DNA of 64,000 bases from a virus: the IMG/VR virus record IMGVR_UViG_3300045988_100686, positions 64,001 to 128,000 of that record. One strand, 5' to 3'. A program made the translations under genes and the position numbers. Position 1 is the first letter of the stretch. Each line of letters starts with the position of its first letter. Below the pieces are notes generated by a model. It was given only the letters and a program-made list of their open reading frames with translations, made no database searches and had not been told where the DNA came from. Shown in pieces: positions 10,866-55,418 of the stretch.

Positions 10866-11804
10866 TTAGTCTTCGTAACCAGCGCCAGTCAGTTTAATCT
10901 TTGCGACACCGTTATCGTTACCAATTGAAATACCAATGTTCTCCCACAGATGGAAGGTAAACTTGTTGGCTTTGGTTTCCATAAATGCTTTAACGTCAGT
11001 CAGGACGTCAAATACACCAAGGTATTCAGGGGTAGAGAACAGATAAATGTGACCCGGTTTTACAATTTCATTCTTGATGGAACGAACGAAGTTGTAACCC
11101 AACAGCTTAGTATAGCTGTAACCATTATGGATGATATCTTCCATAACCTGAGAACCAGCTGCAGGCTGTTGCAGTTTCAGCAGGTCCATCCAGTCAGATT
11201 CACTGATCAAAATAGTGCCGATAGGTACTTGACGTTTAACCAGGAGTTTCAGGCCTTCAGCCAGGATAGACGGAGTAAACGGACCAGCTGCAGTGTAAAC
11301 TGCGGTACCAGCTTTTTCCGCTTCTTTCTTCTTCAGAATATCATCCACAGTAGAAATAAATAGTTTATCTTCTGTAGCCTGAATATCTTTCAGATAGTTC
11401 TCTTGGATAATTTGTTTAATAGGTACTCTGTAGGTCATCAACTCTTCAGTGAGTTTGTGGAATTCCTCAGACTGAATATGAGTATAGAATACCTGGAATT
11501 TATCACCGATATAGTATCTCTGTTGAGCTTGCTCACTGAAAGTTACAGGGTAAGCCTCAGATACTTTATCTTTGTGGATAATACGCATCGGGGAATCTGA
11601 ATCAACAGCTTGGTCCAGATCTGCTGCGGTAATTTGTTTCGGGGGAATAATTTTACGAGTGAAGGAACCTTCACGGATTTTTACACGGCAGAACTCAGTA
11701 GCACTACCTGCAACCTTTTCCAAACCTTCCTGAGAAGAAATCTTTTGGACAAAGGAAGTGTTGTATAACATTGCATCATTTGCGTTGTCGAGAATTACGC
11801 TCAT
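10866..11804 (-). CDS. candidate major capsid protein (highly expressed structural protein)
   Basis: 312 aa; codon usage visibly shifted to CTG/CGT/GGT/GAA/CAG unlike neighbours; sits after protease and scaffold-like genes; no motif-level proof of HK97 fold. Confidence 0.4.
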   Translation of the reverse strand: MSVILDNANDAMLYNTSFVQKISSQEGLEKVAGSATEFCRVKIREGSFTRKIIPPKQITAADLDQAVDSDSPMRIIHKDKVSEAYPVTFSEQAQQRYYIGDKFQVFYTHIQSEEFHKLTEELMTYRVPIKQIIQENYLKDIQATEDKLFISTVDDILKKKEAEKAGTAVYTAAGPFTPSILAEGLKLLVKRQVPIGTILISESDWMDLLKLQQPAAGSQVMEDIIHNGYSYTKLLGYNFVRSIKNEIVKPGHIYLFSTPEYLGVFDVLTDVKAFMETKANKFTFHLWENIGISIGNDNGVAKIKLTGAGYED

Positions 11805-26793: not shown

Positions 26794-27607
26794 TTATACA
26801 ATGGCTATGAATATTAAAAAGATAGAATTTGAAGACAATTCTGCTGTAGTAACCATGAGGGATCCTGACGAACTTATTGGTCTTGTACGTAAAAGAGTGT
26901 CGATTGATGCTCTAATTCAAGCCCTTGGAAAGATTAGTACATCCCAATCTATGCTTATTCCTCCTAACTGCAGGGGCATTTGGGAGACTAAAAACAATAA
27001 GTATTTCCTGTTTATCATCCCGGCACACATGGGCAAGACTGCCGTAGTGTGGTATAAAACTGACACTGATAACTATGGAGCTCCGGGTAGTAGTACTAAG
27101 TTGGAGAACCAGCCTGAACATATTCAGTCAATGTATGAAGACTCAGAAGACAGTGACTACATTAGAGTGTTCAACACTCCATTCCCAGATGCGTGTGTGT
27201 TGATTAAAATGACAAAGGCTGGTAGCAATAAACTTATGTTTAATGATATCAGAGCATGGTCTATTAAGAGTACTATGCTTCCTCTAGATAAAACAGCAGT
27301 ATACCGCTGGCCGTTCTTTAATATGTATGGTGATGCAAGAGTATGCATTGGTGATATCCCCAGAGAGTATCCTAATGTAGAATCTGTTGCTAGTATTATT
27401 AATTACCTATATATTGGCGTAGGTAACCATGATCTTGATCATACTCCATATGTAATTCCTGATAATAAGTTTGGAATCAAAAATTCTTTTCAGTTGGTCA
27501 AATACCTTGATGAAAACAAGTTGACTGTATTTCCAAGGGAGTTACTGTGTAGTTTTGGTACATCGATCATTGAAACAGTAGAAAATATTGTTGCTAATGG
27601 AAATTAA
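26774..27607 (+). CDS. E2-like (UBC-like) ubiquitin-conjugating enzyme candidate
   Basis: 277 aa; WPFFNMYGDARVCIGDIP resembles the E2 HPN-x4-G-x-ICL active-site flap with catalytic Cys; start may be GTG 26774 or ATG 26801; sits immediately upstream of JAB and E1 genes. Confidence 0.4.
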   Translation: MLLKDGDYTMAMNIKKIEFEDNSAVVTMRDPDELIGLVRKRVSIDALIQALGKISTSQSMLIPPNCRGIWETKNNKYFLFIIPAHMGKTAVVWYKTDTDNYGAPGSSTKLENQPEHIQSMYEDSEDSDYIRVFNTPFPDACVLIKMTKAGSNKLMFNDIRAWSIKSTMLPLDKTAVYRWPFFNMYGDARVCIGDIPREYPNVESVASIINYLYIGVGNHDLDHTPYVIPDNKFGIKNSFQLVKYLDENKLTVFPRELLCSFGTSIIETVENIVANGN

Positions 27608-27621
27608 TGGAGGTAAAAATA

Positions 27622-29472
27622 ATGGCAGTTCCAAACCAATATAATAAATATGCTTCTTTATATACTGTGCCCAAAAAGCCAGAACTCACAGACGTCCAAA
27701 AACGTCTTATTGAACGTATGCAACGTAGTCGCTGCAAAATCTGGGAGTCCTATGCTGCGTATACTGCAGCTGATGAATCTGATAAGAAACCAGACAATTA
27801 CTTCCCAACTAAAACTGGTTGGGGTATTGCGCGCAAGCGTGTTCTCAATGGTAATAGTGTGGAGTTCGTTACAACTGTTCCAGAATGTCCGCTGGTTGAT
27901 GAAATCCAACCCAAAGTTGTTCTTGATATTCATAATAAAATCCCTGGATCTCTGCTCCAGGAGATTCTTGCAAACTTTAACAAAGTATGCGAGGACTCTA
28001 ATAATGAGTGTGCTGCTCAGATTTACCGTGAGCGAGATGGTGAAAGAAAGTATTTCATTTATTACCCTGAACAAAAGGTGTCTACTGCTCAAGTAACCTA
28101 TACTCATGATCCACAGCTCATGGAACTCGCAAAGGCATATGACCTCATCATGGAGCTGCATTCCCATGATTCTATGGGTGCATTCTGGTCTGGCACAGAT
28201 GACAGTAATGAGAACACTTGTGGATTCTACATGGTAATTGGCAGATTTAACTCTTCTGTAGTTGAGTACAAATGCCGTGCAAAACTTGATAAACTGTATG
28301 CTGATTTTAATTGCTCTGAAATCTTTGATTTCGGTGACACACCTGAAGAACAAATCCTTACTCGTGAAAACTTTATTGCTCCGAATGATGAACTGGATAA
28401 GAAGATCACAAAAGAAAGCCTTACTTATTATAATGGTGCGTATCAAGCTTGTTATGACATGTGGAACTATGGTGGTTATTCTTATCAAGGATACAATGAC
28501 TATAATTATGGTAAATCAACTAAGAAATCTCAGAGATACCTTGCTAAAACAGAACTGGCTGCACGTAAACGCTTGATGGCTAAATTGAAGAATGCTCCGG
28601 AATCCATCTTCCCGGAAGACGCTCTTTATAATGAGCTCTGGGATCATGCAGACTATATCAAAGCCAGAAAACGTTGGGAATGCTGTGGGTACTATGATAA
28701 CCAGGAGGCCATGAAGGAATGCTGGAAACGAATCCCAAAAAACCAGGCAGGCGCGGAAGAGGAGGTGAGTCAAGACGCCGTCGTTGCCTCTGATTATGTA
28801 ACTCGTATGAGCAAGTGCTACTCTGCAGATGGGTTCCAAAATACCCATACAGCTGGTGGAGTTGCCACTGGCATTGAAACTGCGGAATATCTTGCTGGTA
28901 ATGGAGATGAGGCAGCTGCACGTTATGGCACGCTTCCGGGCAAGATTCAACAATACAGTAATTTTGATTTAGATCTTGGCACTGCTGATGTGAATGACCA
29001 AGACTACAATGATAATCTTAATATGGCTGTGGCTAGCAGAACTGAGTCCCAGTCTAACATTGAGACATTCTTGCAGGAAGGAATGGGCGGGGTCCGTGAA
29101 GAGACTGAAAACAAATTTATTGCTAATGTAATGAATATTGCGTTTCTTCACACCCCGTCAGCCAGTATCAACGTCGGAGTGTTCTGGGAGTTGCTTACAC
29201 CGGTTGAGAAAACTAGACTGGCAAAAGCATTCCACTGCTCTGTTATGGATCTTGCTACTCTGCTTATTGGCAGCAGCGCTGTTGTTGCATCTCCTGATGT
29301 AGCAGAGTTCCTGTATAAGTGCATCCTTGGTGATGCTAAGTATGTAGAATGTAAGCTTGGTCTTATTACCAGTAAGGTCATGGCTGAAAAGCCGTCTACT
29401 GCTGCTCAATTTGTAGCACTCATCCATGAGATGCTTGAGGTTGAAAGAGATGTTAAGGAGGCAAAGGAATGA
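27622..29472 (+). CDS. JAMM/JAB (MPN+) metallopeptidase with long aromatic-rich C-terminal extension
   Basis: ELHSHDSMGAFWSGTDD = exact H-x-H-x7-S-x2-D JAMM motif; ATG 27622 has GGAGG at 8-nt spacing (track's 27607 start overlaps previous stop). Confidence 0.65.
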   Translation: MAVPNQYNKYASLYTVPKKPELTDVQKRLIERMQRSRCKIWESYAAYTAADESDKKPDNYFPTKTGWGIARKRVLNGNSVEFVTTVPECPLVDEIQPKVVLDIHNKIPGSLLQEILANFNKVCEDSNNECAAQIYRERDGERKYFIYYPEQKVSTAQVTYTHDPQLMELAKAYDLIMELHSHDSMGAFWSGTDDSNENTCGFYMVIGRFNSSVVEYKCRAKLDKLYADFNCSEIFDFGDTPEEQILTRENFIAPNDELDKKITKESLTYYNGAYQACYDMWNYGGYSYQGYNDYNYGKSTKKSQRYLAKTELAARKRLMAKLKNAPESIFPEDALYNELWDHADYIKARKRWECCGYYDNQEAMKECWKRIPKNQAGAEEEVSQDAVVASDYVTRMSKCYSADGFQNTHTAGGVATGIETAEYLAGNGDEAAARYGTLPGKIQQYSNFDLDLGTADVNDQDYNDNLNMAVASRTESQSNIETFLQEGMGGVREETENKFIANVMNIAFLHTPSASINVGVFWELLTPVEKTRLAKAFHCSVMDLATLLIGSSAVVASPDVAEFLYKCILGDAKYVECKLGLITSKVMAEKPSTAAQFVALIHEMLEVERDVKEAKE

Positions 29473-30974
29473 AGAAAACTGTGTTAGCTATCGGGCCTGC
29501 TAGTCCGTATGTGAATCTCTTGGCAACTGTTCAAGAGCATTTAAATGACTTAAGTGTCATTAAACCTAATTTTAATAACCTTCATATCATTCAGCTCGGT
29601 GCTGGTGGTACTGGCGGTTATGTAGCGTATGAAATACTTCGTATGCTTGGTAATATTCCAGAGGTGTTAAAACCGTATATCCATTATACACTGATAGATG
29701 GTGATACGTATGAGCCAAAGAATATTGGCAGACAACTTTGCTGTGAAGATGATATCGGTAAGTATAAAGCTCAGGTCCTCGTTGAAGAGTATGGAGAACT
29801 CTTTGGTGTTACTCCAGACCAAGCGTCTCATATCGATGAGTATTTTACTGCTATCAGCCAGCTGGCTGTTCTTCCAAAATTCCCTCTGCCAATCTGGTCT
29901 GTATTTGTAGACGATGAAGTAGAAAAGTTCTTCAAAGACTCTGAAGCTGCAGTTGCACTTAATTCTAAACAGCCACATATCAATGCAACAGCTACGTCAT
30001 TTATCATTATTGACTGTGTTGACAAAAATGCTCCGCGTAAACTATTACATGATTACTTTACAGATATCTCCAGTTTGCCCAGTACTTTGGCGCGTCTGAA
30101 CTATTGTTGCAATGCTGTTCCTGACTGTGATAAGATCACTGCTACTGGGCAGCAAATCATTGCACATAACAACGGTGGTAACAGCCTGCTTGGAAGTATG
30201 TACGGTGTCACCCCGATTCGTGATATCTACATCATCTCATCCGGCAATGGCAAGTATACTGGCCAAGTATCCTGGGGAAGAAAAAGCTTCCTTGGTAACT
30301 CCAGTGGTTCTATGCACTACAAGGATATCTTTGGTGACAAGGATGTATCTTCTATTATTGGACCTAAGATTAATACGAATGATGAAGTAGAGGCTGTCGA
30401 TATTACTCCGGGTATGACAGACGCTGATGTAAACCAGTTGCGGCTTAAAGCATTGGCTGAGGAGTATTTTACACCGTCTAATGTAAAGAGATTCCAGGAT
30501 AATGTATTCCAAGAAATTGTGGATCCTGCTACTGGCAGATTGTCAAATGGTTACATTAAGTCTATCCCGATTCCAATTACTAACCCAGAGGAACCTGAGC
30601 TTGAAACTGGACACCCGATGCTCAAAAACATGAATATGTTCATGTCTGCTTTTATGTCTACACCTACTCCGTATGACAGGTTCCCGGAGCTTACAGACCT
30701 TGAGATTGATGCAAGAGAAGAGGCGATGAGCTGCGCGGAGCGTGCAGAACATAATGTACAGTCTATCAATGCTAATAAAACTGCTGCAGCTCTTGTAGTA
30801 AATTACTTCACATCTATCTTTAATGGTATGTATATGTTTGAAAAGGAAGTACCCGTTCTTACTACTGAGACTACACGTTTCAACATATTAACGGGCGAGT
30901 ACTCTTCTGACCCGATTACTACGGATTCTCTGCGTATCCCTGTGGAAACACGCAAAAGAGTTCGCGCATTTTAA
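29469..30974 (+). CDS. E1-like (ThiF/MoeB/UBA-type) activating enzyme
   Basis: IIQLGAGGTGGYVAYEIL (Rossmann GxGxxG) followed by LIDGDTYEPKNIGRQL (E1 D-x-D-x-v-E-x-s-N-L-x-R-Q block); AGGAG RBS; overlaps JAB stop. Confidence 0.65.
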   Translation: MKKTVLAIGPASPYVNLLATVQEHLNDLSVIKPNFNNLHIIQLGAGGTGGYVAYEILRMLGNIPEVLKPYIHYTLIDGDTYEPKNIGRQLCCEDDIGKYKAQVLVEEYGELFGVTPDQASHIDEYFTAISQLAVLPKFPLPIWSVFVDDEVEKFFKDSEAAVALNSKQPHINATATSFIIIDCVDKNAPRKLLHDYFTDISSLPSTLARLNYCCNAVPDCDKITATGQQIIAHNNGGNSLLGSMYGVTPIRDIYIISSGNGKYTGQVSWGRKSFLGNSSGSMHYKDIFGDKDVSSIIGPKINTNDEVEAVDITPGMTDADVNQLRLKALAEEYFTPSNVKRFQDNVFQEIVDPATGRLSNGYIKSIPIPITNPEEPELETGHPMLKNMNMFMSAFMSTPTPYDRFPELTDLEIDAREEAMSCAERAEHNVQSINANKTAAALVVNYFTSIFNGMYMFEKEVPVLTTETTRFNILTGEYSSDPITTDSLRIPVETRKRVRAF

Positions 30975-30980
30975 GCTAAC

Positions 30981-31016
30981 GGTGGGCTCTTTGTGAGTCC
31001 ACCTTTTATTTTTTAT
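30981..31016 (+). terminator. rho-independent terminator after E1 gene
   Basis: GGTGGGCT-ctttgtg-AGTCCACC stem then TTTTATTTTTTAT. Confidence 0.6.
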
Positions 31017-31029
31017 GGAGGTATGCTAT

Positions 31030-32004
31030 ATGCAAATCCCAAGTTGGTTTATGGATAAGTATTTTCCAGAAGGTAGCGCACGCTCTGCTATAGTCTGTGA
31101 TGACGGAGAATTAAAATCATTCTTACGAATGGAAGCAGATGATAAGAATGCTGGGTGCGAAATCTTTGGTGATTATAGCTACGTGGAAGATATCATGGCA
31201 GTAATGTGTGAACCTGTTGTGGCCCATGAATTATCACTGCCAGCGCTTGAAGACTTAGTTCCTGATAAATATCATATATATAGGGTTATTCCACCATATT
31301 ATCTGCAGTTGTGGTACAAATATCAGCTGTCAAATAGGGGCATGACAAGTAGCTATACAGAAGATAAATTTAAGGTTGATTTTATTACTGCGTATATCAT
31401 TGAGTTCCCATGGGAACAGATGTCAAGTTGTAGCAGAAGAAAAACGAGATCAAAAAATGATGTAGACCACTGTATGTATGACAAAAATTTATTTAATGCT
31501 TGGTGTTATCAAAAAGATACTATTGAGGCTGTAGCACAGTTTCTTAATATCTGTAGAATCCCTGCATCTGAGGAAGAGATTGCGAAACTATTTATATCTA
31601 GGTTTATCTGGTATAGCTTTGTGACTCAATTGGATCTGCTGGATAGCATAGAAATAGGGGAATGGCTTGATTTTTATAATGGAGCACCGTATAGATCAAG
31701 ATGCGTTGATAGAAACTATGAGTTGAATTCTAGAAAAAGTTGTGGCCACTGGGGTGGTCTCATGGCTGCAGGGATTAAGATAAGCCGTATCCTGGAATAT
31801 CCTAGAAATGCTGATTCAGTAAAATCTAGAGTCTTGCAAAGGGCTAGGCTCTTAGTTGTAATGTTTTGTATGTCCCAGTCACCCAGAACGGTGAAGCTGA
31901 TCATTGAAGGTCTTATGACGTTTTCTGCGTCAATATCAGGTACATGGATGTTAAGCATCATTGAACCACTGGTAAGGGAGGTGGAGCCTTCATGGCTAAA
32001 ATAA
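31030..32004 (+). CDS. Cys/Trp-rich hypothetical protein
   Basis: start moved to ATG 31030 (GGAGG at 8-nt spacing; the track's 31015 ATG lies in the terminator T-tract); 325 aa. Confidence 0.5.
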   Translation: MQIPSWFMDKYFPEGSARSAIVCDDGELKSFLRMEADDKNAGCEIFGDYSYVEDIMAVMCEPVVAHELSLPALEDLVPDKYHIYRVIPPYYLQLWYKYQLSNRGMTSSYTEDKFKVDFITAYIIEFPWEQMSSCSRRKTRSKNDVDHCMYDKNLFNAWCYQKDTIEAVAQFLNICRIPASEEEIAKLFISRFIWYSFVTQLDLLDSIEIGEWLDFYNGAPYRSRCVDRNYELNSRKSCGHWGGLMAAGIKISRILEYPRNADSVKSRVLQRARLLVVMFCMSQSPRTVKLIIEGLMTFSASISGTWMLSIIEPLVREVEPSWLK

Positions 32005-33824
32005 ATGAGTTTACTATAGTGAGTGAGCTGAATGATGAGTTTAGTCTACGGGTATTTATGGAGTCGGGACAAAAGGTTGCTCAAGTTAATAATGTCTCTC
32101 ATGATTTCTTAAGAGAGGCAATGCCTACTAGCAGGCTTGGAATAAGAACTCCAGGACTTGCTCCCTGGCCATCTAAATTTAAGGAAAATCCAGTTCCTGA
32201 TGGATACTCTATTGCACTAAGTCATAAGTATACATTTGGGTCGATGTGTCTTAAGATGCTCTTGAACAAGCAAGCCAGACACAGATATTTTGCGTTATTA
32301 CTCGCGTTGTTTGGTAATAATGAAAATACCAGGGAACTTCTCACTGTAATGTTGTTAAGAACGAAGTTTACTGATGAATTACGATATTTATGTGAGCAGC
32401 TTGACATTTCTCGTATGTCTGTTAGAACCTGGGATAGTGTGGCTATAGACAACAAGCCTGGCAGTGTAAAGTTTAATGATGTTAGAAATTCTCCATGTAG
32501 TTGGTCGAGTGCACTTAGAAATGGATGTCTTGCTGACGGATATGTACCTCATCCGAACATATGGTTCAGAGATGTGAAAAATAAAAGTTTGTTTACTAAG
32601 ATATCCGCTTGTGAGATGTTCCCTAATCTTGCTCCAAAGATCCTGGCAAGCATCCCTAAGTACCCTAAAGGAGGCAAGGTAGATAGAATTGTAGATATAA
32701 GGACTCAGATTCTGTTCAATATGCTGAGAAATGCATATGGACTCAAGTATGAGGATATCATTGTTGATAAGCAGCTAGATCTTAATACATATGAAGTTCT
32801 ATCTTCTCTCTGTGCTATTCTTACTGCTGCTGCAGGATTAGGCGGCAGGGTTTCTATTACTGATATCAGAGGAGTTGATCCAGACTTAGATGTAAAATTA
32901 AGGTTTAGTCTCTGGTATCGTAATGTAAGATCAAGGATACTGACACTTCAAGGGAATTATGGTGTGGCAGGTGATGCCTGGCTTATGGACAAACTGCTTA
33001 CTTCATTAGCTGTTGTAATGAATGCGGGGGATAAACAGGAAAGTGAATTGCTAACGTCGTGTGTACGAGCTGCAGTTGATGAAAATGATCTCCAGGAAAC
33101 CCTTGAGGGATGGGTGTCTAAGAGGAATATCAATATGTATCTTGGTGATACGAATACTTTAAACGCGGTGAATGTTCCCGCATCTACCTTGAGGAGCATT
33201 GAAGATGGGATAGATGACATTGTACAATCACTGTCTGACAAGGATAACATTGTTAAATGCCTAAAAGAACTGGTGCAGCTTCAGGAGTCTTCTATTAGTG
33301 GGAAGGCATTTGATCCTGTCACTACTACTAACTATACAAATATACAGTATAACAACAATGGACTTGTAACTGCGAGCCTGATTCCAATGATTACAAACAG
33401 ATTCCAACTACTGGACTACATTTATAGAATGAGTACGTATAGAGAAAACGAGTTTATCTATGATACTATGGGAATCGTAAACAGATGCTCTAGGACTATA
33501 AGTTCCCATGTAAGTTCTTATGAATATAGTATAGGTATTTTGAAGAAATGGGAAGAGTTGCGGGATATTGCACTTGATCAGGTCTCACACAACGGTTCCG
33601 GGTATTTTTCAACTGAAATGTTGTATTGGAGTGCACTGGCTAGAGTTCTGGTAACCGACTGGCAACACTTCTGCAGAATCAATGCAGGGAAATCCAGAGA
33701 TGAGCTGTTTGAGATGTCAGTACTTACGGATAATCCATTCGCTGATATTGAGAACAGTGTCTGCCAAGAAATTGATGAGTATAAATCTGGATATGCAAGA
33801 TGGCGTGAAAACAGGTTTAAATGA
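31992..33824 (+). CDS. large hypothetical protein (610 aa)
   Basis: ORF overlapping previous stop by 13 nt. Confidence 0.5.
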   Translation: MAKINEFTIVSELNDEFSLRVFMESGQKVAQVNNVSHDFLREAMPTSRLGIRTPGLAPWPSKFKENPVPDGYSIALSHKYTFGSMCLKMLLNKQARHRYFALLLALFGNNENTRELLTVMLLRTKFTDELRYLCEQLDISRMSVRTWDSVAIDNKPGSVKFNDVRNSPCSWSSALRNGCLADGYVPHPNIWFRDVKNKSLFTKISACEMFPNLAPKILASIPKYPKGGKVDRIVDIRTQILFNMLRNAYGLKYEDIIVDKQLDLNTYEVLSSLCAILTAAAGLGGRVSITDIRGVDPDLDVKLRFSLWYRNVRSRILTLQGNYGVAGDAWLMDKLLTSLAVVMNAGDKQESELLTSCVRAAVDENDLQETLEGWVSKRNINMYLGDTNTLNAVNVPASTLRSIEDGIDDIVQSLSDKDNIVKCLKELVQLQESSISGKAFDPVTTTNYTNIQYNNNGLVTASLIPMITNRFQLLDYIYRMSTYRENEFIYDTMGIVNRCSRTISSHVSSYEYSIGILKKWEELRDIALDQVSHNGSGYFSTEMLYWSALARVLVTDWQHFCRINAGKSRDELFEMSVLTDNPFADIENSVCQEIDEYKSGYARWRENRFK

Positions 33825-33834
33825 TTTGTACTTA

Positions 33835-33868
33835 GACGAGAGTGAAATACCTCTCGTCGTTTTTTTTA
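33835..33868 (+). terminator. rho-independent terminator ending plus-strand island
   Basis: GACGAGAG-tgaaatac-CTCTCGTC then T8. Confidence 0.7.
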
Positions 33869-33908
33869 GTTATCTAGAATTTAAAGGTTGGACAATGTTG
33901 AACATGCT

Positions 33909-34026
33909 TCTCTCAGAGCCTACAGTGTACCTAGATTTGATTTTTATGTAGGGGTGTATGTAGTTATATACCCTGTTGTAAAAAGTCTCTCAAAGTTAAT
34001 CCTAGGAGCTCTGAGATATATGTGTG
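33909..34026 (+). repeat. left copy of ~118-bp diverged direct repeat flanking non-coding region
   Basis: CTCTCAGAGCCTACAGTGTACCTAG ... AAAGTCTCTCAAAGTTAATCCTAGGAGCTCTGAGATATATGTG aligns with 34894..35012. Confidence 0.6.
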
Positions 34027-34093
34027 CATTTTAAGCAGAATATGGAGGCTGTTTGAGCACTGGATAACAAGGTCATAAAGTACCTAAAAACCA

Positions 34094-34497
34094 GTGTAAC
34101 CTCTGCAGCCCTTACATAGCAAGGGTTTCAAGCTCTGGTTACACTTGTCTACTTATCAGACAATTTAAAGTGTAACCACAAAAATCTCGATAGACTGGGG
34201 CCTCAGATACCTCAAAATATACTGGTTACACTTTCTACACTAAAAAATATATATATATTATATACGATATACGATACGCGCACCCGCGCCTTAGGGGATT
34301 ATTTATATAATAAATATATAAAGATACACACATAATTATATATATATTATATGTCTATCCAAAAAGGTGTAGAAAGTGTAACCAGGGCCTTTTTGTAGTC
34401 ATACGCCCCCAGTTCATCGAGGTTCACGCGGTTACACCTTTTCAAAAAATAGGTGTAGAAAGGTGTAGATAAGTGTAGAGAGTTGTCAGACAATTTT
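34094..34497. repeat. iteron cluster: alternating GTGTAACC/GGTTACAC octamers, tandem (A/G)GGTGTAGA decamers, TCAGACAATTT pair
   Basis: GTGTAACC at 34094, 34170, 34376; GGTTACAC at 34137, 34224, 34430; AGGTGTAGAA/AGGTGTAGAT/AAGTGTAGAG at 34451-34480; TATCAGACAATTT 34154 and TGTCAGACAATTT 34484. Confidence 0.7.
34246..34335. repeat. AT-rich (TA)n core with TACGATA tandem and GC-rich knot CGCGCACCCGCGCC
   Basis: atatatatatattatatacgatatacgatacgcgcacccgcgcc...ataattatatatatattatatg. Confidence 0.6.
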
Positions 34498-34893
34498 AAA
34501 AGGCACCATAAATCCAGGTAAACGTCGTTAGTCCCAGTACTGTCCTTGTAAAACTATGATTTTCGTAGTACTCAACATACGAGTGTCCATTAGTTCAAAC
34601 TTTTGACACACTCTGATTTTTCTGAAAATTATTACCTATCTTGCTACTATGTTTATAAAATATAAAATAGTATGCAACATATAAATTAACTTTTAACTTT
34701 AATAAACACATCCAAGCAGACTACGTTACACAAAGTTGTGACACTTAAGTGACATTGTAATATATCTTTCAATTCTAACAAATCAGATAATTAAGATTTT
34801 TCATAGTTTATAATAAAATTCAGACAGCTATCCATGTCAGTCTTTGTCTTTCATAGCTAAACATAACTAACCATAGCTAACAAGCATACATAG

Positions 34894-35012
34894 CTCTCAG
34901 AGCATATAGAGTACCTACATTCATTTTTTTAAATCATCTCCTATACAATATACTAATAGCAAACAAAGTCTTCTCAAAACTAATTCTAGAGCCTCTCAGA
35001 CATATATGAACA
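34894..35012 (+). repeat. right copy of ~118-bp diverged direct repeat
   Basis: CTCTCAGAGCATATAGAGTACCTAC ... CAAAGTCTTCTCAAAACTAATTCTAGAGCCTCTCAGACATATATGAAC. Confidence 0.6.
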
Positions 35013-35013
35013 T

Positions 35014-35049
35014 AAAAGAGCACCAGACGGCCACAGTCGTCCAGTGCTC
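35014..35049 (-). terminator. possible terminator hairpin after minus-strand tail block
   Basis: GAGCAC..GACG-loop-CGTC..GTGCTC imperfect stem followed (minus strand) by UUUUAU. Confidence 0.35.
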
Positions 35050-35056
35050 TCATTGT

Positions 35057-37095: not shown

Positions 37096-38052
37096 TTAAG
37101 TCATAGCTTTCTTTGCCATAGATACTACCTTAGTGTCCTCATATACATACATTATTACATCCTCAGAAGACCGCTTATCATTGATGTAGATTCCATCTGC
37201 AACATATGCTTTAGGGTTATTCACTGACATACTTAGTATTAACTGACTGCCCTTGTTTACTTTGTATATCCCTGGTTTACCAAGGTTTGACTGAATAATA
37301 GTACCTTCTCCTGCTTCTATACTAACAGTACATGTTTCTCGTTTTCCTCCCTGTGAACTAGGGAGTCTCATAATATAATATTTGCATACATACGGTGTGA
37401 TTACATTGAATTGTACCACTGATTGGCTAGCCGTACCAGTTTCTGATGAATCTTCCTTGTAACAGTACATCTGCCCACCAGTACCCGTAGGATAAATTTC
37501 TTTATCCCACTGTCCGAATTTTTTATATGCTTCATACCTGCCATTGCTAGAATACACACCAACAATATTGTGAAATTTATGTACATGGTTTCTCATAATC
37601 GCTGTGGAGTTTACACTATGTACAAATGAGCCACCTTCTTTTCCTATTGGACATGCTCCACTCCAGCAAACAGCAATCCTCTGGCGTAGGTCCGGTGTTC
37701 CATTAACACCATCACAGATAACCCAGTTAGTTGGTACATCACCTAGTTCACCCGCCCATATAGCTATAGAATAGGGAGGAAAATCATCTTCGCTTAACAA
37801 GGATTCTATAAGATCTAGCTCTTTTATATATCCATCAATGAGATCTAGGAGCTCTGGGTAAAAAAATCCATTTTCCGTAGTTGTTACCCTTGCATGTTCA
37901 TGGTCTCCCCTTGTACCAGCATGGCGATCCAGCGCTGTAACAGTAGTCTGTACATTGTCTCTCAGTTCTGTAACAAATTCTTTCTTGATCAGGATATTGT
38001 GATACAGTGTTTTATCTGTGTACTCATTGAGTACTACGTCTGAATTTGCCAT
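37096..38052 (-). CDS. tail fibre protein with phage tail-collar domain
   Basis: IAIWAGELGDVPTNWVICDGVNGTPDLRQR matches the collar consensus (..W.lCdG...tPdLRg); N-terminal HEHARVTTTENGFFYPELL module shared with next two genes. Confidence 0.6.
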   Translation of the reverse strand: MANSDVVLNEYTDKTLYHNILIKKEFVTELRDNVQTTVTALDRHAGTRGDHEHARVTTTENGFFYPELLDLIDGYIKELDLIESLLSEDDFPPYSIAIWAGELGDVPTNWVICDGVNGTPDLRQRIAVCWSGACPIGKEGGSFVHSVNSTAIMRNHVHKFHNIVGVYSSNGRYEAYKKFGQWDKEIYPTGTGGQMYCYKEDSSETGTASQSVVQFNVITPYVCKYYIMRLPSSQGGKRETCTVSIEAGEGTIIQSNLGKPGIYKVNKGSQLILSMSVNNPKAYVADGIYINDKRSSEDVIMYVYEDTKVVSMAKKAMT

Positions 38053-39626
38053 TACTGACTCACTCCTATTTCTCTAACCTGCACAGTTCCTCCAATTATT
38101 TGAGCTACTAGTGACGCTGAGGCCGCTGTTGCCTCAAGCTTAATAGTAACCAAATGTTTACCTTTATTTAAAGTCATAGATGAATACACAGAATTAACCA
38201 GCATTTCCCCACTATCTACGTAAGAAAGAGTGTTCGATGCTTCTGTATGTCCATCCAACAGAACATCAACGTTAACTTCTGCGTCGTCTCTACGATATCC
38301 ATAGAAATTACTAAAGACTTTCGGTGTGATTTTTACTCTATACGTACCAGATGAAGGTATTTCAAAGTTTACATTGGTCAAAACATACTTTGTATCCTTG
38401 CTCTTTACCTCAACAGTCTCAGAGAAAGGGATAGATATATTGACAATAGGTCCTGGGTCTACACCTATAGATTGAACAGCACCATTACTACGTGGATCAT
38501 AAACCCTTCCTGACCATCCACGTTCGGTCACCGTGTAGTCAAGCACTTGCATACCAGGTATGTCATGATCGCTATCAACAGTTAGCTTCGTACCATACAA
38601 GTAATCCTCATCAGTTACATACTCACCATCGATATAAGTTTTAACTAATTCATTCTGGTTGACTTTAACATTGATGATCTTGATACCTGTAACACCCACA
38701 ACGTCCATATCGTCGTAAACCCTGACATAACATGGTGTACCACGACTTTCGCCAGCTACTGTTAGGCTGAGCATCTCATGTGCTTCATCAGCACTGAATT
38801 CAATAAGTATTATCGTTCCAGATTTAACAGTCTTAGACTCTACTACAGCTCCGTCGATACTGATCTGCCCACCCTCTGTAGGCTGGTGAACTGTGATAAC
38901 ACAATCTTTGATATTATCATCCCCGCGCATGATAAACGGGACTTTGATGGTTCTAGGAAGCAACTTGTCAATGGTAAAGCTTGCATTGCCACCAACATAG
39001 TCAAACTCATCTTCAAAGTAGCAACTAGAGTTATCCCAGTCCCATGAGCTCAAACGAAGATCATTTGGGATTGGGTTTCTAAAACCTTCTCCCTTTTCTG
39101 TATCATTTGGATAACAGCACCAGCAATTATAAAACGTATGATGATGTGGGACAATTCCTGATGATTTTGCAAGAGTTTCATTTATATTTGTTTCACCATT
39201 GGAGGAAGAATGGAGGGGATATGTCGCTGTAACACTACCACCTAATACATATTTACCACGTATATCAGGGGTTCCATTTTGGCCATTACAATAAAACCAC
39301 TTATCAGGAGGAGCACTCGGCAGTCCATCATACATAACTATAATCCTAGCAGGTACACGTTGATCAACCCTGGATTCTAGCTCTGATAGCCTATTTTCTA
39401 TATCACTGATTTCCTTGACTATCTCTGGAGTAATAAATCCAGGCTGCGTGAGAGTTACAGCTTTATGCGCTTCATAGCTCTCTAGGTTACGGTGATACTC
39501 AAGGTCTACATCAATTAATTTTATGTTATTTTCTAATTCAACAAAATGTTTTTCTGATACGGGAGTTTCACCCGAATATATTGGGTTGTCTATCCAGGTG
39601 ACAACACCAGATATTTGTCTTGCCAT
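38052..39626 (-). CDS. tail fibre protein with tail-collar domain (paralog 2)
   Basis: IIVMYDGLPSAPPDKWFYCNGQNGTPDIRGKYV; N-terminal HKAVTLTQPGFITPEIV module. Confidence 0.6.
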   Translation of the reverse strand: MARQISGVVTWIDNPIYSGETPVSEKHFVELENNIKLIDVDLEYHRNLESYEAHKAVTLTQPGFITPEIVKEISDIENRLSELESRVDQRVPARIIVMYDGLPSAPPDKWFYCNGQNGTPDIRGKYVLGGSVTATYPLHSSSNGETNINETLAKSSGIVPHHHTFYNCWCCYPNDTEKGEGFRNPIPNDLRLSSWDWDNSSCYFEDEFDYVGGNASFTIDKLLPRTIKVPFIMRGDDNIKDCVITVHQPTEGGQISIDGAVVESKTVKSGTIILIEFSADEAHEMLSLTVAGESRGTPCYVRVYDDMDVVGVTGIKIINVKVNQNELVKTYIDGEYVTDEDYLYGTKLTVDSDHDIPGMQVLDYTVTERGWSGRVYDPRSNGAVQSIGVDPGPIVNISIPFSETVEVKSKDTKYVLTNVNFEIPSSGTYRVKITPKVFSNFYGYRRDDAEVNVDVLLDGHTEASNTLSYVDSGEMLVNSVYSSMTLNKGKHLVTIKLEATAASASLVAQIIGGTVQVREIGVSQ

Positions 39627-39638
39627 GTGTTGTCCTCC

Positions 39639-41219
39639 TTAACATCCTGTAATATAATAAGTTATCGTATCTGTACTAAGATGATCACCGAGATTAACAA
39701 CGATAGACTCCAGAGTAAACGACTTAATTGTTGGCTGATCGCTGTCTGGATTAGTATTCCGCAGTTTAACATTGAGTATCTTTGTTTTCATCGCTCTAGG
39801 TAACACGATTGTTTCAGAAACACCCTGGCTTCCCCATACACTAAGCGTACCATCAGAGTTCTCTACCCAGTTATCACCTATAGAATCAGGATCCGATGAT
39901 ATCGTAGCAGCTGCTTTGGTAGTCATTGCAGAAAGTGCAATAACTGTGTTTTCAGCTTCAGCATCAATTGTCACATATTCTGGGTGATATGCACGAATAG
40001 CGAATGTGAGGTTATTCGTATCACATACTTTCCCATTACCAGGATTTCCAATATCTATATTTTCCGATGTAATACACTGCCCCACCGTTGGCGGGTCTCC
40101 AGAACCCGGGCCATAATTATTTCCGCTACCATTCCACCCAATCCCAGTACTACCTGTAGGATATGTTGCATTAGAGTAATCGAACCAGCCCCAAGTACCA
40201 TTGTTGTTTGACCAGCTTCCAATTGCATGATAATGTTTAGAAACTTTCTGCTCAGTAGTACTTAGTTCACCATAGATCTCATTCACCGCCATACAGCTAT
40301 TCTGTATAACAGGTAATCGTATCATTCCAGCAGTAGATGATTCTCCAAAGTACGGTACACTGCCATACTTGTTTTTATACGAAGTCCATGCAGACTCAGA
40401 TATTACGAGGTTTGTATTCATTGCATACTGATACAGGCCTCTGTATAACTTTTTTGATACAAGTGACCCATTAAGCTCCAATAGTCCTTCAGGGGTATTC
40501 TTAGACAATACAATGTGTATAGTGCCAACACCATCAGTAACTTCAGGTGCAATCTGTGATGTTTTCTTTATAACTGCAAGTGACTTATACGGTGGCACAA
40601 TGTCTACAGATTTTTGACCTCCATTAACATAAGGTATTACAGTCGTCACCGTAGAATCATAATACGCTGACGGCCATACTGGAGTTGACCTATCTGAATC
40701 AGTTCCAAGTCTATTGCCATAGTATTTTAGTTGCACACCTGTATAACCTGAAATTTCTTTCCAACTTTCTGAGAAAACATAGTTATTAAAAGAATGTGTA
40801 TGTCTTGGGACAGGGAATTCTGTAATATCAACAGAATCCCTGCCAGATACCTCAGTGTACTCACTGTCAGACTTTGCTTCCATGACGAATTTCCCACGCA
40901 TATCCAGGGTATCATTACTGCCGTTACAAAGCACAAACCCCTCTGGAATTTCAGTCTCACTTTTTGACCAGTACAACATAGAACCTTCTGGTAGCACAGC
41001 CTCTTCAGTTCGTTTACGCAGGTCTGCTATTTGCAGCTTGAATCCTAGCAGCTTGTTATACAAGTCTTTATCCATGAATCCTGGGTGCTCCGTAGTTCCT
41101 ACCACATGAGCATCACCCCCGGAACCAATGTGGTCACGTATCTTTTGTGCGATGCCTTCAAGGCTGTTTCGTAGTTCAGGTATTTTCTCCTTGATAACTA
41201 CCTTGTCTTTCACTGTCAT
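39639..41219 (-). CDS. tail fibre protein with tail-collar domain (paralog 3)
   Basis: SMLYWSKSETEIPEGFVLCNGSNDTLDMRGKFV; N-terminal DAHVVGTTEHPGFMDKDLY module. Confidence 0.6.
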   Translation of the reverse strand: MTVKDKVVIKEKIPELRNSLEGIAQKIRDHIGSGGDAHVVGTTEHPGFMDKDLYNKLLGFKLQIADLRKRTEEAVLPEGSMLYWSKSETEIPEGFVLCNGSNDTLDMRGKFVMEAKSDSEYTEVSGRDSVDITEFPVPRHTHSFNNYVFSESWKEISGYTGVQLKYYGNRLGTDSDRSTPVWPSAYYDSTVTTVIPYVNGGQKSVDIVPPYKSLAVIKKTSQIAPEVTDGVGTIHIVLSKNTPEGLLELNGSLVSKKLYRGLYQYAMNTNLVISESAWTSYKNKYGSVPYFGESSTAGMIRLPVIQNSCMAVNEIYGELSTTEQKVSKHYHAIGSWSNNNGTWGWFDYSNATYPTGSTGIGWNGSGNNYGPGSGDPPTVGQCITSENIDIGNPGNGKVCDTNNLTFAIRAYHPEYVTIDAEAENTVIALSAMTTKAAATISSDPDSIGDNWVENSDGTLSVWGSQGVSETIVLPRAMKTKILNVKLRNTNPDSDQPTIKSFTLESIVVNLGDHLSTDTITYYITGC

Positions 41220-44075: not shown

Positions 44076-44221
44076 AGTCAGTTTCCTCCTATACGTAGAC
44101 GATAGTGCACTGGATCCATTCACTTTATGAGTCTAGTATAGCATACAAAGAGTACCAAAGTTGACTATTAAATCACCTGGTTTTCATCACTGGTCACAGT
44201 TAAAACATTCTTAACCTTTGA

Positions 44222-44262
44222 AATAATAAAAAGCCCGTTACCCCAGGAGAGGGCAACGGACT
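44222..44262 (-). terminator. rho-independent terminator downstream of sigma-r4-like gene
   Basis: minus strand CCGTTGCCC-tctcct-GGGGTAACGG then GCUUUUUAUUAUUU. Confidence 0.6.
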
Positions 44263-44265
44263 TCT

Positions 44266-44541
44266 CTATAGATTTGACATACATAGCAGCTTTTGCGCAA
44301 ATTTGTCAATCCGCTTTAACAATGATTTGACATGCCTGTCAAGTGTCGAGGGCGACATTCCCAGTTCTTCTGCTACAAATTCTCTCGTAGGCTTGAAATC
44401 ACGTTGACGGTAGCGTAGCTCTAGAATCTTACGCTCCTCTGGTACCATACCCAGAAAGTTGCATAGACTTTCATAGTCTAGCTGTGGGATTTCCCTGAGC
44501 ATCTGCTCAATTGCCTTACGATTTTGTTTTGTTAAGGCCAT
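44266..44541 (-). CDS. sigma-70 region-4-like HTH protein (putative late transcription regulator)
   Basis: 91 aa; ERKILELRYRQRDFKPTREFVAEELGMSPSTLDRHVKSLLKRI resembles ECF-sigma region 4.2 (L..REVF.LRY..G.S..EIA..LG.S.GTVKSRL.RA). Confidence 0.5.
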   Translation of the reverse strand: MALTKQNRKAIEQMLREIPQLDYESLCNFLGMVPEERKILELRYRQRDFKPTREFVAEELGMSPSTLDRHVKSLLKRIDKFAQKLLCMSNL

Positions 44542-44542
44542 T

Positions 44543-44833
44543 TTAAGCCTCCTTGAACGCGGCTTCCAGAGGTTTCAGTAATACATTTTCCAGTCTGCTA
44601 ACACGTTTTTCTAAAACGACCACCGGGTCTTCACTACCTGCATGTATATTCTGTGTTGTCTGTGATACATAAACGTATTCTTGCCCACCTAAGAATAGAT
44701 GCAGGCTGTCATTCTCCTTACAATGATAGCCTTGTGGAGCTGTGAAACTTGATTGTCTAGCCGTTTGAGGGATAAGAGTTTCATTGTTAACTGTAAAAAT
44801 TGTTAGGGTTTGAGGCCCTGTAAGATTAAGCAT
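44543..44833 (-). CDS. hypothetical protein (96 aa)
   Basis: ORF; ATG 2 nt after upstream stop. Confidence 0.45.
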   Translation of the reverse strand: MLNLTGPQTLTIFTVNNETLIPQTARQSSFTAPQGYHCKENDSLHLFLGGQEYVYVSQTTQNIHAGSEDPVVVLEKRVSRLENVLLKPLEAAFKEA

Positions 44834-44878
44834 ACGGAATCACACTCCTTAATGGATGTATGTCCCAGTTGACCCAGC

Positions 44879-53336: not shown

Positions 53337-55418
53337 TCATAAACAGGGGGTCTGATTATTTATATTATAATCCCAACTAATAAGTGGTAGAGAAGCCATA
53401 CTAGAAGAATTAACTGTTAACGAATATGTTTCTCCAGAATTTACTCTAATATAATTATTTACTGTACTCGTTACCCAATTAGTACTTTCACTATCTCCAT
53501 TATCCCACATAGCAGCAGAGCACCAAGTGTTACTTGTTTCTGTATTTACAACAGATTGAGATTGGCTTCTGCTACTATTATAGCCACCTGCTTGTACATA
53601 AATAACTTTTACACCTTTAGGTACTGTAAATGTAATATTGCCTGTAGACGTAAATCTGTAACTTCCTGCGGTCAACGGTCTCAATAATAGTCTGTCATAC
53701 TCAACAACTGCTTTTGTATGGTCTGATGCAGTCCCAGTAGTTAACTGAGTTGCAGTTATAGCTAGTTCTGTACAGTGAGCTTGGGCTGAAGTCATACACT
53801 TAACTTCTACTTTATAGTATTTGTAAAACTCTGTGTTAGAAGACAAGTCTATATCCCAAGAAGCTTTACTTGTATAGTTAGTATTTCTTACAATTTTTAT
53901 AGGAACCCATGTATTATTATTGTAACTACCGTACACAGCTACTAGAATAGGATATACGGTCCAATTTTTGTAAGAAATCTTTGTTACTTTTAGCGGATTA
54001 GGATTATAAAATATTAAGTATCCACTGCCAGTATTAGCAGCCCAGTATTTAGTATCTGTTCCATCAAAAGCCATCCAAGGCATATATGAAGTGCTGTATT
54101 GAGCAGATGCTGATACCGCAAATGAACTACCACCAAGAGTTCCATTAGCAGTTAGTGTAGGTTGCGTCCAAGCTGTTTCTTTATAATATTTAGTAGAATA
54201 TAATTTTGTAGGTACTTTACAGTTAATAGTAGATGCAAAAGGATTTTCTCTATTTGCATATACTCCGTATACATTTCTTTTTGAATGCTTAATAGGAGCA
54301 CCATTATTAGATAAATTTTTAATAATTACCCAACCATCCTGCCCTTTTTTACCATTGGCGGCTTCATTAGTATAATTATAAGATGCACCACCTACGCCTC
54401 CTATACCTCCAAGACCATAGGATTTGCATGGAGAACCGCCATATGCTCCATAGGAAACCGAGTGTGCTTTTGTTCCACCATCTCCTCCTTGAGCCTCTAT
54501 CCCAAAGAATGAAGAAGTTCCACCTTTTGAACCAGGTTTTGAATCACAATCTGAGCCATTTCCATAAACACCTGGACTTCCTGCACCACCCTCTCCTACT
54601 ACTATTTGATAGGTTCCAGCAGGAACATAAATTATTGAATTTATTAATGCACCTCTACCTCCAGACCCCCCACCTGCTGATTTATCTCCAGCTTTTTGTG
54701 CAGCACCTGAACCTCCGCCACCGGCTCCTGCTATTTCTACCTCTAGATATTTATCAGAACTTAAAGTTAATGTGTATGTTCCAGGGGAATCATAATATTT
54801 ATCAACTAACTCTTCACTATTTTCAGTTAATAACTCTGGGTCGCTTGTTCTGGTATAGAGAGGAATTTCTACAGTTTCTGGATTTCTCCATATACCGTTA
54901 ATAGTTAAGAATCCCATAGATGCATAAGTCTGACTATTTGTAGAAGTAATCTTATAACGATAATATCTATACCATCCTTGCTTAGTAGACGGTATATATA
55001 CTGTCCACATCGCATTGACAGTATCATTTGTATTTTGATACGTTGTAAGTGTAGTCCAATGGGAATCGTCATTAGAGCCTTGCAATTCTAAGTCTTTAGC
55101 CATACCCATATGCTGACTTCTATTTCTATGAGTTATAGAATATAATTTTGCCCCTTTAGGGAAATACATAGTATAGTAATAAGGGTCAGACGTAGTTGGC
55201 GCAGAATTTTTTGAAATAGCACAATTTGTTCCCTCAAAATACTGGAAAGAATGGTGTGCATAATAATCTCCATTATAATAGCTACTAGCTCTTACGGCGA
55301 ATTTATCTCCGCCTACTGTTCCGTCCTCTGTAAGAATAGGCTGTATAAATACTTCCTCTCTACCAGAGTAGTGCATAGCATTTCTAAATTCTGGCATATT
55401 ACCATACCTCCAAACCAC
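53337..55418 (-). CDS. tail fibre protein with glycine-rich domain
   Basis: 693 aa; EVEIAGAGGGGSGAAQKAGDKSAGGGSGGRGALINSIIYVPAGTYQIVVGEGGAGSPG...GQDGWVIIK glycine-rich module; N-terminal beta-rich domains. Confidence 0.55.
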   Translation of the reverse strand: MVWRYGNMPEFRNAMHYSGREEVFIQPILTEDGTVGGDKFAVRASSYYNGDYYAHHSFQYFEGTNCAISKNSAPTTSDPYYYTMYFPKGAKLYSITHRNRSQHMGMAKDLELQGSNDDSHWTTLTTYQNTNDTVNAMWTVYIPSTKQGWYRYYRYKITSTNSQTYASMGFLTINGIWRNPETVEIPLYTRTSDPELLTENSEELVDKYYDSPGTYTLTLSSDKYLEVEIAGAGGGGSGAAQKAGDKSAGGGSGGRGALINSIIYVPAGTYQIVVGEGGAGSPGVYGNGSDCDSKPGSKGGTSSFFGIEAQGGDGGTKAHSVSYGAYGGSPCKSYGLGGIGGVGGASYNYTNEAANGKKGQDGWVIIKNLSNNGAPIKHSKRNVYGVYANRENPFASTINCKVPTKLYSTKYYKETAWTQPTLTANGTLGGSSFAVSASAQYSTSYMPWMAFDGTDTKYWAANTGSGYLIFYNPNPLKVTKISYKNWTVYPILVAVYGSYNNNTWVPIKIVRNTNYTSKASWDIDLSSNTEFYKYYKVEVKCMTSAQAHCTELAITATQLTTGTASDHTKAVVEYDRLLLRPLTAGSYRFTSTGNITFTVPKGVKVIYVQAGGYNSSRSQSQSVVNTETSNTWCSAAMWDNGDSESTNWVTSTVNNYIRVNSGETYSLTVNSSSMASLPLISWDYNINNQTPCL

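Follow-up and report, generated by a model that had tools for sequence, protein, structure and literature searches.

The stretch of DNA considered here, called the window, comprises 64,000 nucleotides (positions 64,001 to 128,000 of IMG/VR virus record IMGVR_UViG_3300045988_100686) and is part of the genome of a novel large phage, relatives of which are represented by contigs of up to 148-151 kb. Within it, a non-coding region (33825-35056) sits between a 10-kb island of + strand genes (24150-33824), encoding Prok-E2_D, Prok-JAB and ThiF (E1) proteins together with unknowns (Pfam), and a tail-fibre operon on the - strand. The centre of this region holds an array of short repeated sites arranged around an AT-rich core, and the element as a whole is probably an iteron-type replication origin of the kind found in Streptococcus thermophilus phage Sfi21, in Staphylococcus aureus pathogenicity islands (SaPI) and in satellite phage P4, where the initiator is a self-loading primase-helicase of superfamily 3 (SF3).

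The original prediction, made from the sequence of the window, described positions 33869-35056 as a convergent junction packed with iterons. The junction is indeed convergent, and two intrinsic-terminator hairpins, one for each of the converging operons, delimit the region. The accompanying claim that neither strand carries an open reading frame (ORF) of 60 aa or more holds in that none lies wholly inside, with the correction that a mechanical 89-aa ORF (33682-33951), which begins within the upstream gene, intrudes by 83 nt. The small ORFs within the region are not maintained in relatives.

The repeated site is the octamer GTGTAACC, of which the window contains seven copies against 1.74 expected; none of 100 shuffles reached seven. 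Six of the seven copies fall within 344 bp (34094-34437), the remaining one lying at 51421. The three GTGTAACC/GGTTACAC pairs originally noted (34094/34137, 34170/34224, 34376/34430) are all present, as are the three tandem 10-mers at 34451-34480. Because relatives carry GTGTAACC at some of the positions occupied here by GTGTAGA repeats, the latter are taken as variants of the same site, which gives a total of 11 sites (six GTGTAACC and five GTGTAGA variants), each 8-9 bp long and of the form (A)GTGTAACC or GTGTAGA(A). These sites form two opposed sets around the core, five to its left and six to its right, with both orientations represented on each side. Those adjacent to the core are tandem pairs of opposite polarity, '- -' on the left (34224/34233) and '+ +' on the right (34367/34376), while the outer inverted pairs enclose spacers of about 35-45 bp, one of which contains a conserved CCCTT..AAGGGTTT box. 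This spacer belongs to unit 1, which reads GTGTAACC - TCTGCAGCCCTTACATAGCAAGGGTTTCAAGCTCT - GGTTACAC. Units 2 and 3 form the left and right arms of a large inverted repeat and are inverted copies of each other, and positions 34167-34441 are therefore an imperfect palindrome of about 275 bp centred on the core, with a z-score of -7.75 when folded as single-stranded DNA. The inverted partners CTTTCTACAC and GTGTAGAAAG proved to belong to a perfect 19-nt inverted repeat within it (34222-34240 / 34367-34385), and the further repeats TATCAGACAATTT at 34154 and TGTCAGACAATTT at 34484 were likewise recovered. Only a single 8/9 match to the DnaA box was seen, overlapping an iteron variant, and no box is convincing.

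The core is 76% AT overall and includes a 60-nt stretch at 90%, compared with 60% AT for the whole window. The (TA)n tract, the two copies of TACGATA and CGCGCACCCGCGCC are all present as described. A small GC hairpin (GCGC-ACCC-GCGC, 34276-34290) interrupts the core, with AT contents of 89% and 83% on its two sides; in GATATACGATACGCGCxCCxGCG the stem is kept in all relatives and the loop varies, and ATTATTTATATAATAAA is invariant across all of them. Two sigma-70-like promoters face the core (34234-34261 on the + strand and 34373-34346 on the - strand). To the right lies an AT-rich arm that includes the CATAGCTAA repeat of the original prediction, in copies at 34852 and 34872. Its three conserved blocks are 90-100% conserved among close relatives, and its sigma-70-like matches include TTGCTA-16-TAAAAT (34641-34668, +), the -10-like TAAAAT of which (34663-34668) is conserved. 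A 38-aa ORF in this arm (34595-34711, -) is open in two relatives and lacks a start codon in one.

The original prediction had missed a pair of direct repeats of about 120 bp that bracket the core at an offset of 984 bp. Each holds the near-palindrome CTCTSAGA twice and a GTACCTA box, and neither holds iterons. The repeats are found in all relatives and co-evolve, in that the two copies of the divergent relative L135 are closer to each other than to the copies of the window, which may point to gene conversion or to a binder that both copies share and that is specific to the lineage. If the two repeats recombined, a 984-bp circle with the iterons on it would be released. The features of the region and the three conjugation genes upstream of it are collected in Table 1.

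Table 1. Features of the non-coding region and of the adjoining + strand island, in window coordinates
Feature	Position	Strand	Details
Prok-E2_D	26774-27607	+	
Prok-JAB	27607-29472	+	
ThiF/E1	29469-30974	+	
Intrinsic terminator (hairpin 33835-33858 and T-run)	33835-33866	+	ends the E2/JAB/E1 operon; left border; 94% three-way conserved
Left direct repeat of about 120 bp (DR-L)	33910-34029	+	CTCTCAGAGC..GTACCTA..ATTTTT ... TCTCAAA..CTAG..CTCTSAGA
Unit 1, inverted iteron pair	34093-34145	+	GTGTAACC 34094-34101 (+), GGTTACAC 34137-34144 (-); encloses conserved box CCCTTACATAGCAAGGGTTTCAAG
TATCAGACAATTT box between units 1 and 2	34154-34166	+	second copy TGTCAGACAATTT 34484-34496
Unit 2 and core-proximal tandem pair	34167-34240	+	iterons 34170-34177 (+), 34224-34231 (-), 34233-34240 (-, GTGTAGAA variant)
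AT-rich core, presumed unwinding element	34241-34362	.	(TA)n tracts, two TACGATA, small GC hairpin; 88% three-way conserved
Unit 3 and core-proximal tandem pair	34363-34441	-	iterons 34367-34374 (+, GTGTAGAA), 34376-34383 (+), 34430-34437 (-)
Three tandem 10-bp iteron variants	34451-34480	+	AGGTGTAGAA / AGGTGTAGAT / AAGTGTAGAG; L131 and L135 carry GTGTAACC at some positions
AT-rich right arm without iterons	34500-34893	.	conserved blocks 34585-34625, 34645-34665, 34725-34800; sigma-70-like matches
Right direct repeat of about 120 bp (DR-R)	34894-35013	+	repeat scan; also in all relatives
Intrinsic terminator	35016-35051	-	ends the tail-fibre operon; right border; 97% three-way conserved

The same layout recurs in other phages. 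Viral contigs were scanned for AGTGTAACC-N30-60-GGTTACAC (individual loci are denoted here by L and a number); 59 of the loci returned hold at least five sites within 600 bp, and in most the motif is clustered rather than isolated. More than 50 unrelated IMG/VR contigs share an arrangement of (x)GTAACC iterons, inverted pairs around a CCYTT..AAGGGTTT box and tandem core-proximal pairs, in which a stretch of 80-98% AT divides the sites into two sets (examples are L107 6044-6405, L012 9052-9382, L053 6320-6596 and L044 3649-4047). The site consensus, A-GTGTAACC, is identical in all locus groups and in the window. Clustering of the neighbouring genes, combined with Pfam, identified helicase genes next to these clusters, of D5 type at eight loci, VapE type at eight and DUF927/Cch type at three, and in all 19 informative loci the cluster lies directly 3' of the helicase gene. 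The unit of GTGTAACC and AAGGGTTT box thus stands beside three helicase families in very different environments (L005-L120).

Iterons are usually specific to their initiator, and because of this the breadth of GTGTAACC use is unexpected. The D5-type neighbours have the domain set Prim-Pol/D5_N/DUF5906/Pox_D5, and the D5 and VapE proteins beside the clusters share a C-terminal tail that resembles a winged helix (..F[ST]K.L..GF..V.K.NGK.VR.F). It is plausible that this shared tail is the common reader of the GTGTAACC site, and such a winged-helix-like tail, with its NGK.VR.F wing, may explain why the same octamer occurs across helicase families.

Isolate phages provide a link to cultured systems. 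A tblastn search with one D5-type protein found homologous primases in isolates, and non-coding DNA 3' of the primase gene shows the same layout with variant iterons in BMBtp15, LincolnB, phiST9-C and Sfi21. Bacillus phage BMBtp15 combines an AT core with iterons CTGTAACC/GGTTACAG and with units that include TATCAAGGGTTTTAG; Paenibacillus phage LincolnB has GTAACAGA with TATATCAACGGTTTTCAGG, and Staphylococcus phage phiST9-C is similar. The core-proximal arrangement of '- -' followed by '+ +' is common to the window, L107, L012, BMBtp15 and Sfi21. Furthermore, an nhmmer profile of the unit, built from other phages only and containing no window sequence, was searched against the whole 64-kb window and matched it at 34094-34143 (+) with E=6.6e-7 and 24.9 bits. 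This only clear match is unit 1; the next matches are units 2 and 3, both weak and partial (E 0.19 and 0.67, that of unit 3 on the - strand).

Among characterised elements, the closest homolog is that of Sfi21. Its record (NC_000872) annotates 34487-34784 as 'origin of replication, 302 bp non-coding region, phage inhibitory sequence', and this origin reads AAGTAACC - GTAAAACCCATTGAAAATAAAGGGTTTCGG.. - GTTACTTAGTTACT, then an AT core, then GTGTAACTAAGTAACT - ..CCTTGATATATAAGGGGTTTGCGG - GGTTAC. In the passages of PMC6356513 that summarise the work (Foley et al., 1998), the element is an origin activated by infection, which in multicopy stops the accumulation of phage DNA and confers phage-encoded resistance (PER); the same passages attribute the inhibition of heterologous phages by the cloned origin to titration (PMC6356513). 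Like the window, Sfi21 has two (x)GTAAC(C) iteron sets in both orientations, tandem core-proximal pairs ('- -' and '+ +') around an AT-rich centre of about 65-120 bp, and inverted iteron pairs around a CC(Y)TT..AAGGGTTT box. There are also differences. The Sfi21 iteron is AGTAACC instead of GTGTAACC, and its two units are direct copies, whereas units 2 and 3 of the window are inverted. Its origin lies directly 3' of a D5-like primase gene, whereas no initiator gene was found near the window element, and the latter is four times longer, with a GC hairpin inside the core and with 120-bp direct repeats and terminators on its flanks.

Comparable similarities are seen for SaPI origins, which contain 6-12 iterons and an AT-rich centre with at least two iterons per side in opposite directions, and which are served by Rep, a self-loading helicase whose C-terminal winged-helix domain reads the iterons (PMC9371898). 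In both SaPI and the window, short iterons are split by a central AT-rich region, and the 11 sites of the window fit the rule of 6-12. The mechanism proposed here is also the same, in that the winged-helix domain of an SF3 helicase would bind the iterons and the DNA would be melted. However, SaPI iterons are penta- or hexanucleotides of another sequence, and the SaPI origin lies immediately downstream of rep, so that the cognate Rep is encoded upstream, unlike the window element, for which none was found in the approximately 74 kb scanned.

The origin of satellite phage P4 has octameric iterons (TGTTCACC), some direct and some inverted, which the D5-family primase-helicase alpha binds with its C-terminal winged-helix domain. 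P4 also requires a second cis site several kb from the origin, crr, which consists of two 120-bp direct repeats carrying iterons. The window resembles P4 in having octameric iterons in both orientations, and the D5 proteins beside GTGTAACC clusters carry, as members of the same family as alpha, a Pox_D5 C-terminal domain. Unlike the crr repeats, the 120-bp repeats of the window carry no iterons, and the 64 kb contain no second iteron cluster. Theta-plasmid origins (of the RK2, pPS10, F and P1 types) and the lambda ori use direct iterons of 17-22 bp that lie to one side of the unwinding element, together with DnaA boxes and loading of the host DnaB. They share with the window the placement of repeated initiator sites next to an AT-rich unwinding element; in contrast, the sites of the window are 8-9 bp long, lie on both sides in opposed orientation and come with no convincing DnaA box. 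Matches of the motif to plasmid RA3 in the literature were judged coincidental, and literature searches with the motif otherwise returned primer noise.

Conservation within the lineage of the phage provides a separate line of evidence. Syntenic loci (L131, L133, L134, L135 and L137) were reached through homologs of a 215-aa neighbour; for a 221-aa neighbour no relatives were found in IMG/VR. An exact 19-mer scan of viral contigs gave 0 matches, and no DNA-similarity match to the region was found among isolate phages, nor was any found for the comparator origin regions. In close relatives the non-coding region is 81-85% identical to that of the window. In L135, whose flanking protein is only 52% identical, good alignment is confined to the surroundings of the core (57% over aligned columns), and the iteron cluster nevertheless persists. 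In a three-way comparison, conservation reached 94.7% for the iterons and 87.7% for the core, as against 55-73% for the unit interiors and 47% for a neutral spacer (34030-34089); the spacer with the TATCAGACAATTT box (34146-34166) is 100% conserved and positions 34481-34500 are 80% conserved. Relatives retain every iteron together with the core, with divergence in the spacers, and purifying selection acts on both the sites and the core. Conserved iterons and core combined with poorly conserved unit interiors fit protein-binding sites and a functional core, and do not fit RNA hairpins.

Overall, the suggestion of the original prediction that the region is a replication origin gains support, since the layout is shared with origin regions 3' of primase-helicase genes, including the annotated Sfi21 origin, and since a profile free of window sequence finds unit 1. 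Because the sites cluster beyond chance, the layout matches, comparable clusters lie 3' of helicase genes and the array is conserved in the lineage, we consider an iteron-type origin of the Sfi21/SaPI/P4-like kind the probable identity of the element, and we infer from sequence comparison that it has origin function in this phage. The winged-helix domain of an initiator, encoded elsewhere in the approximately 150-kb genome or supplied in trans, would bind the sites, after which two helicase rings would be assembled, one on each flank of the core, to melt the DNA there, and primase would then begin bidirectional synthesis. Transcription from the two core-facing sigma-70-like promoters may activate the origin, and the flanking direct repeats and the right arm would have an accessory role. 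As a putative origin, the element is unusual in its distance from any initiator gene seen, its inverted units, the conserved GC hairpin in its AT core and its co-evolving direct repeats.

Several observations weigh against this assignment, and most of them concern the initiator. No homolog of D5, VapE or DUF927 was found in the approximately 74 kb scanned of the genome of about 150 kb, that is, the window and 10 kb beyond its left end. When the proteins encoded next to all the comparator clusters were compared with the window by tblastn, no homolog of a helicase, primase or terminase came up, Pfam and PHROGs recognised no replication helicase or primase among about 45 window proteins, and a Walker-A scan found the motif in only two ORFs, neither of which is helicase-like. 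A hidden Markov model (HMM) of the winged-helix tail had no match in the window, in the 10 kb to its left or in the loci of about 20 kb from three relatives. The 610-aa ORF directly 5' of the element was considered as a divergent initiator and rejected; it has no P-loop, only lineage-specific homologs and no recognisable domain, and its product is predicted to be helical, with an unusable AlphaFold2 model (predicted local distance difference test score, pLDDT, 33). Since this neighbour is not initiator-like, the rule seen in 19 of 19 loci elsewhere, that the cluster lies directly 3' of an initiator gene, does not hold here. The element is instead surrounded by structural and accessory genes and lies between convergent terminators, and large phages often start replication by other routes. 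Finally, fewer than 100 bp separate the cluster from a downstream Terminase_2 small-subunit gene (terS) in about 17 comparator loci. One group of loci has a small cluster of this kind at the boundary between replication and packaging modules, with no helicase in view, so that the motif family may have a packaging or late-promoter role.

This terS group (members include L019, L029, L032, L042, L047, L056, L062, L091, L099 and L103, for example L019 3587-3668) appears to be marine and has a compact form, one unit with tandem GGTGTAACC sites flanking it, about 70 bp upstream of terS. A GcrA-like/sigma-r4-like gene lies on one side and a terS-HNH-VRR-NUC-like block on the other, and no primase-helicase is in view. 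The inner box of this group, CCTTATCCAGC, is a 7/9 match to the DnaA-box consensus. GC skew was rejected as evidence for an origin in the window because its turns, at 24 and 34 kb, merely track gene orientation.

The original prediction had also named a packaging site, a dense promoter region and a non-coding RNA as alternatives, and these come out weaker, given promoters that are not enriched, hairpin interiors that are the least conserved parts, scattered contig ends, no recognised terminase and no Rfam match. The regulatory alternative fares best among them and is nevertheless unlikely. According to it, the GTGTAACC sites would be targets of a phage transcription regulator, or would serve as a sink for protein, and would control the core-facing promoters or the ends of the convergent operons. 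The two sigma-70-like promoters do overlap iteron variants, and the clusters of the terS group, between a GcrA-like/sigma-r4-like gene and terS, are placed as a late-promoter region would be. However, promoter-like sites are not enriched (10 vs 6.5 +/- 2.9 in shuffles), an AT-rich centre and a position 3' of the helicase gene in 19 of 19 loci are what origins would show, and the Sfi21 homolog behaves as an origin. In addition, the region is downstream of both flanking operons and past their terminators, and so there is no gene to regulate.

A more elaborate proposal, a little less likely again, would make the GTGTAACC/AAGGGTTT module a cassette that different phages have in common and combine with at least three families of SF3 helicase. 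In this lineage of about 150 kb, which encodes an RNA polymerase (RNAP), the cassette would have lost its coupling to any initiator gene and acquired the co-evolving 120-bp repeats as brackets, and could act in trans. It could serve as a natural PER-like decoy for, or hijacker of, initiators that small phages or satellites bring in on co-infection, or recombination between the repeats could release it as an origin minicircle.

A packaging signal or genome terminus (pac/cos), at which terminase small-subunit sites would flank a cut in the AT core, is slightly less probable still. It would account for the terS-adjacent clusters, and several short-read assemblies from the lineage do break inside the region, including a 148.7-kb contig (L134) that ends at the window equivalent of 34167. 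However, the break points differ (33877, 34085, 34167 and 34320) and fall on the inverted repeat and the (TA)n tract, like assembler failures, and four other contigs of 40-151 kb read straight through. No terminase gene was recognised among the window proteins, and in Sfi21 the cos site (40722-40736) is elsewhere in the genome than the origin (34487-34784). The breaks inside the element are found in L001 and at the ends of L002, L003, L134 and L136, with L134 ending exactly at the start of the large inverted repeat. Look-ups of exact proteins returned mostly identical short contigs that break inside the region, and for one end protein there was no record. In L001 (9662-9707), a 46-nt piece of 33845-33890 is joined after 34085, most likely an assembly artefact.

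There is a slim chance that the array is an origin decoy or a trans-acting origin. It would then lack a cognate initiator and, in a PER-like manner, would draw off or make use of initiators belonging to small phages or satellites that co-infect the host and use GTGTAACC iterons. The lack of an initiator in the sequence scanned, the use of the same octamer by many unrelated phages and the titration ascribed to the cloned Sfi21 origin all agree with this. However, what was scanned is about half of the genome, so that the initiator may lie elsewhere; there is no evidence of co-infecting partners, and the conserved AT core and accessory parts fit a working origin.

A cluster of small structured RNAs transcribed from the junction, or of single-stranded DNA hairpins, is highly improbable; the hairpins would be about 55-70 nt long, each closed by a GTGTAACC..GGTTACAC stem. 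Units 1 and 2 do fold better than shuffles (z -2.8 to -4.7), and in some inner hairpins both sides differ between unrelated phages, for example CCCTT/AAGGG vs CCGA/TCGG. However, no Rfam (15) family was found at gathering or permissive thresholds (0 matches at the gathering score), the sole match, at 31 bits where the gathering score is 211, being to a generic model for long-hairpin miRNAs, and no tRNA or tmRNA was found. Many sites are direct tandem copies, which are unable to pair (34451-34480; L034, L107), the interiors of the units are their least conserved parts, and the inner palindrome of unit 2, kept by relatives, is disrupted in the window. The two strands fold equally well, which is the behaviour expected of inverted repeats in DNA. 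Least probable of all are a partition (centromere) site like those of plasmids and a remnant of a mobile element with terminal inverted repeats, for example a miniature inverted-repeat transposable element (MITE), although repeat arrays around an AT tract and a 275-bp imperfect palindrome can resemble such elements. No ParA/ParB-like or transposase gene was recognised among the window proteins screened, all relatives, down to 52% flank identity, have the element at the same position, and origin regions give the better detailed match.

To our knowledge, replication origins are almost never annotated in metagenomic phage genomes. If the assignment of the element as an origin is correct, it would be recognisable from layout alone, and the combination of (x)GTAACC iterons in the order - -, AT core, + + with a AAGGGTTT-box unit would provide a practical signature for uncultured phages. 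This signature would join the Sfi21 PER element of 1998, the SaPI/P4-type self-loading helicases and many marine, gut and soil phages in one origin family. The element is the most likely start site of DNA synthesis in this phage of about 150 kb, which raises the question of where its initiator lies. Because cloned origins of this type block related phages, it is also a candidate tool for studies of phage resistance or replication.

Elsewhere in the window, the non-coding stretches at 44124-44878 and 23950-25330, the latter with two small called ORFs, show no comparable repeat structure in the repeat scan. The major head protein gene is at 10866-11804 on the - strand, and tail and tail-fibre genes occupy 37096-41219 and 53337-56694. 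A split gene for a protein resembling the beta' subunit of multisubunit RNAP (21290-23992, -) shows only about 30% identity to its closest isolates, with the distant isolate Salmonella phage Arash at 30%. The homolog of this 900-aa protein in L137 (1-2007) has a weak Intein_splicing Pfam match beside RNA_pol_Rpb1_5, so that an intein in a phage RNAP subunit is possible.

The E2/JAB/E1 operon of the island is a phage-borne ubiquitin-like conjugation operon that is also present in L131, L133, L135 and L137 and is kept across the lineage down to about 52% flank identity. The island also holds four unknown proteins (494, 329 and 610 aa), and upstream lie two small ORFs, one of 76 aa (24529-24759) and one of 94 aa (25028-25312), whose products could be ubiquitin-like. 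PADLOC gave weak E1-E2 matches on the island, for the ThiF protein only. Finally, a TnpB / IS605 OrfB-type gene with HTH_OrfB_IS605, OrfB_IS605 and Cas12f1-like_TNB domains, with no counterpart in the window, is found in L131 (1219-2376) and L132 (231-1388); in this one branch of the lineage it has inserted upstream of the block of tail-fibre genes.

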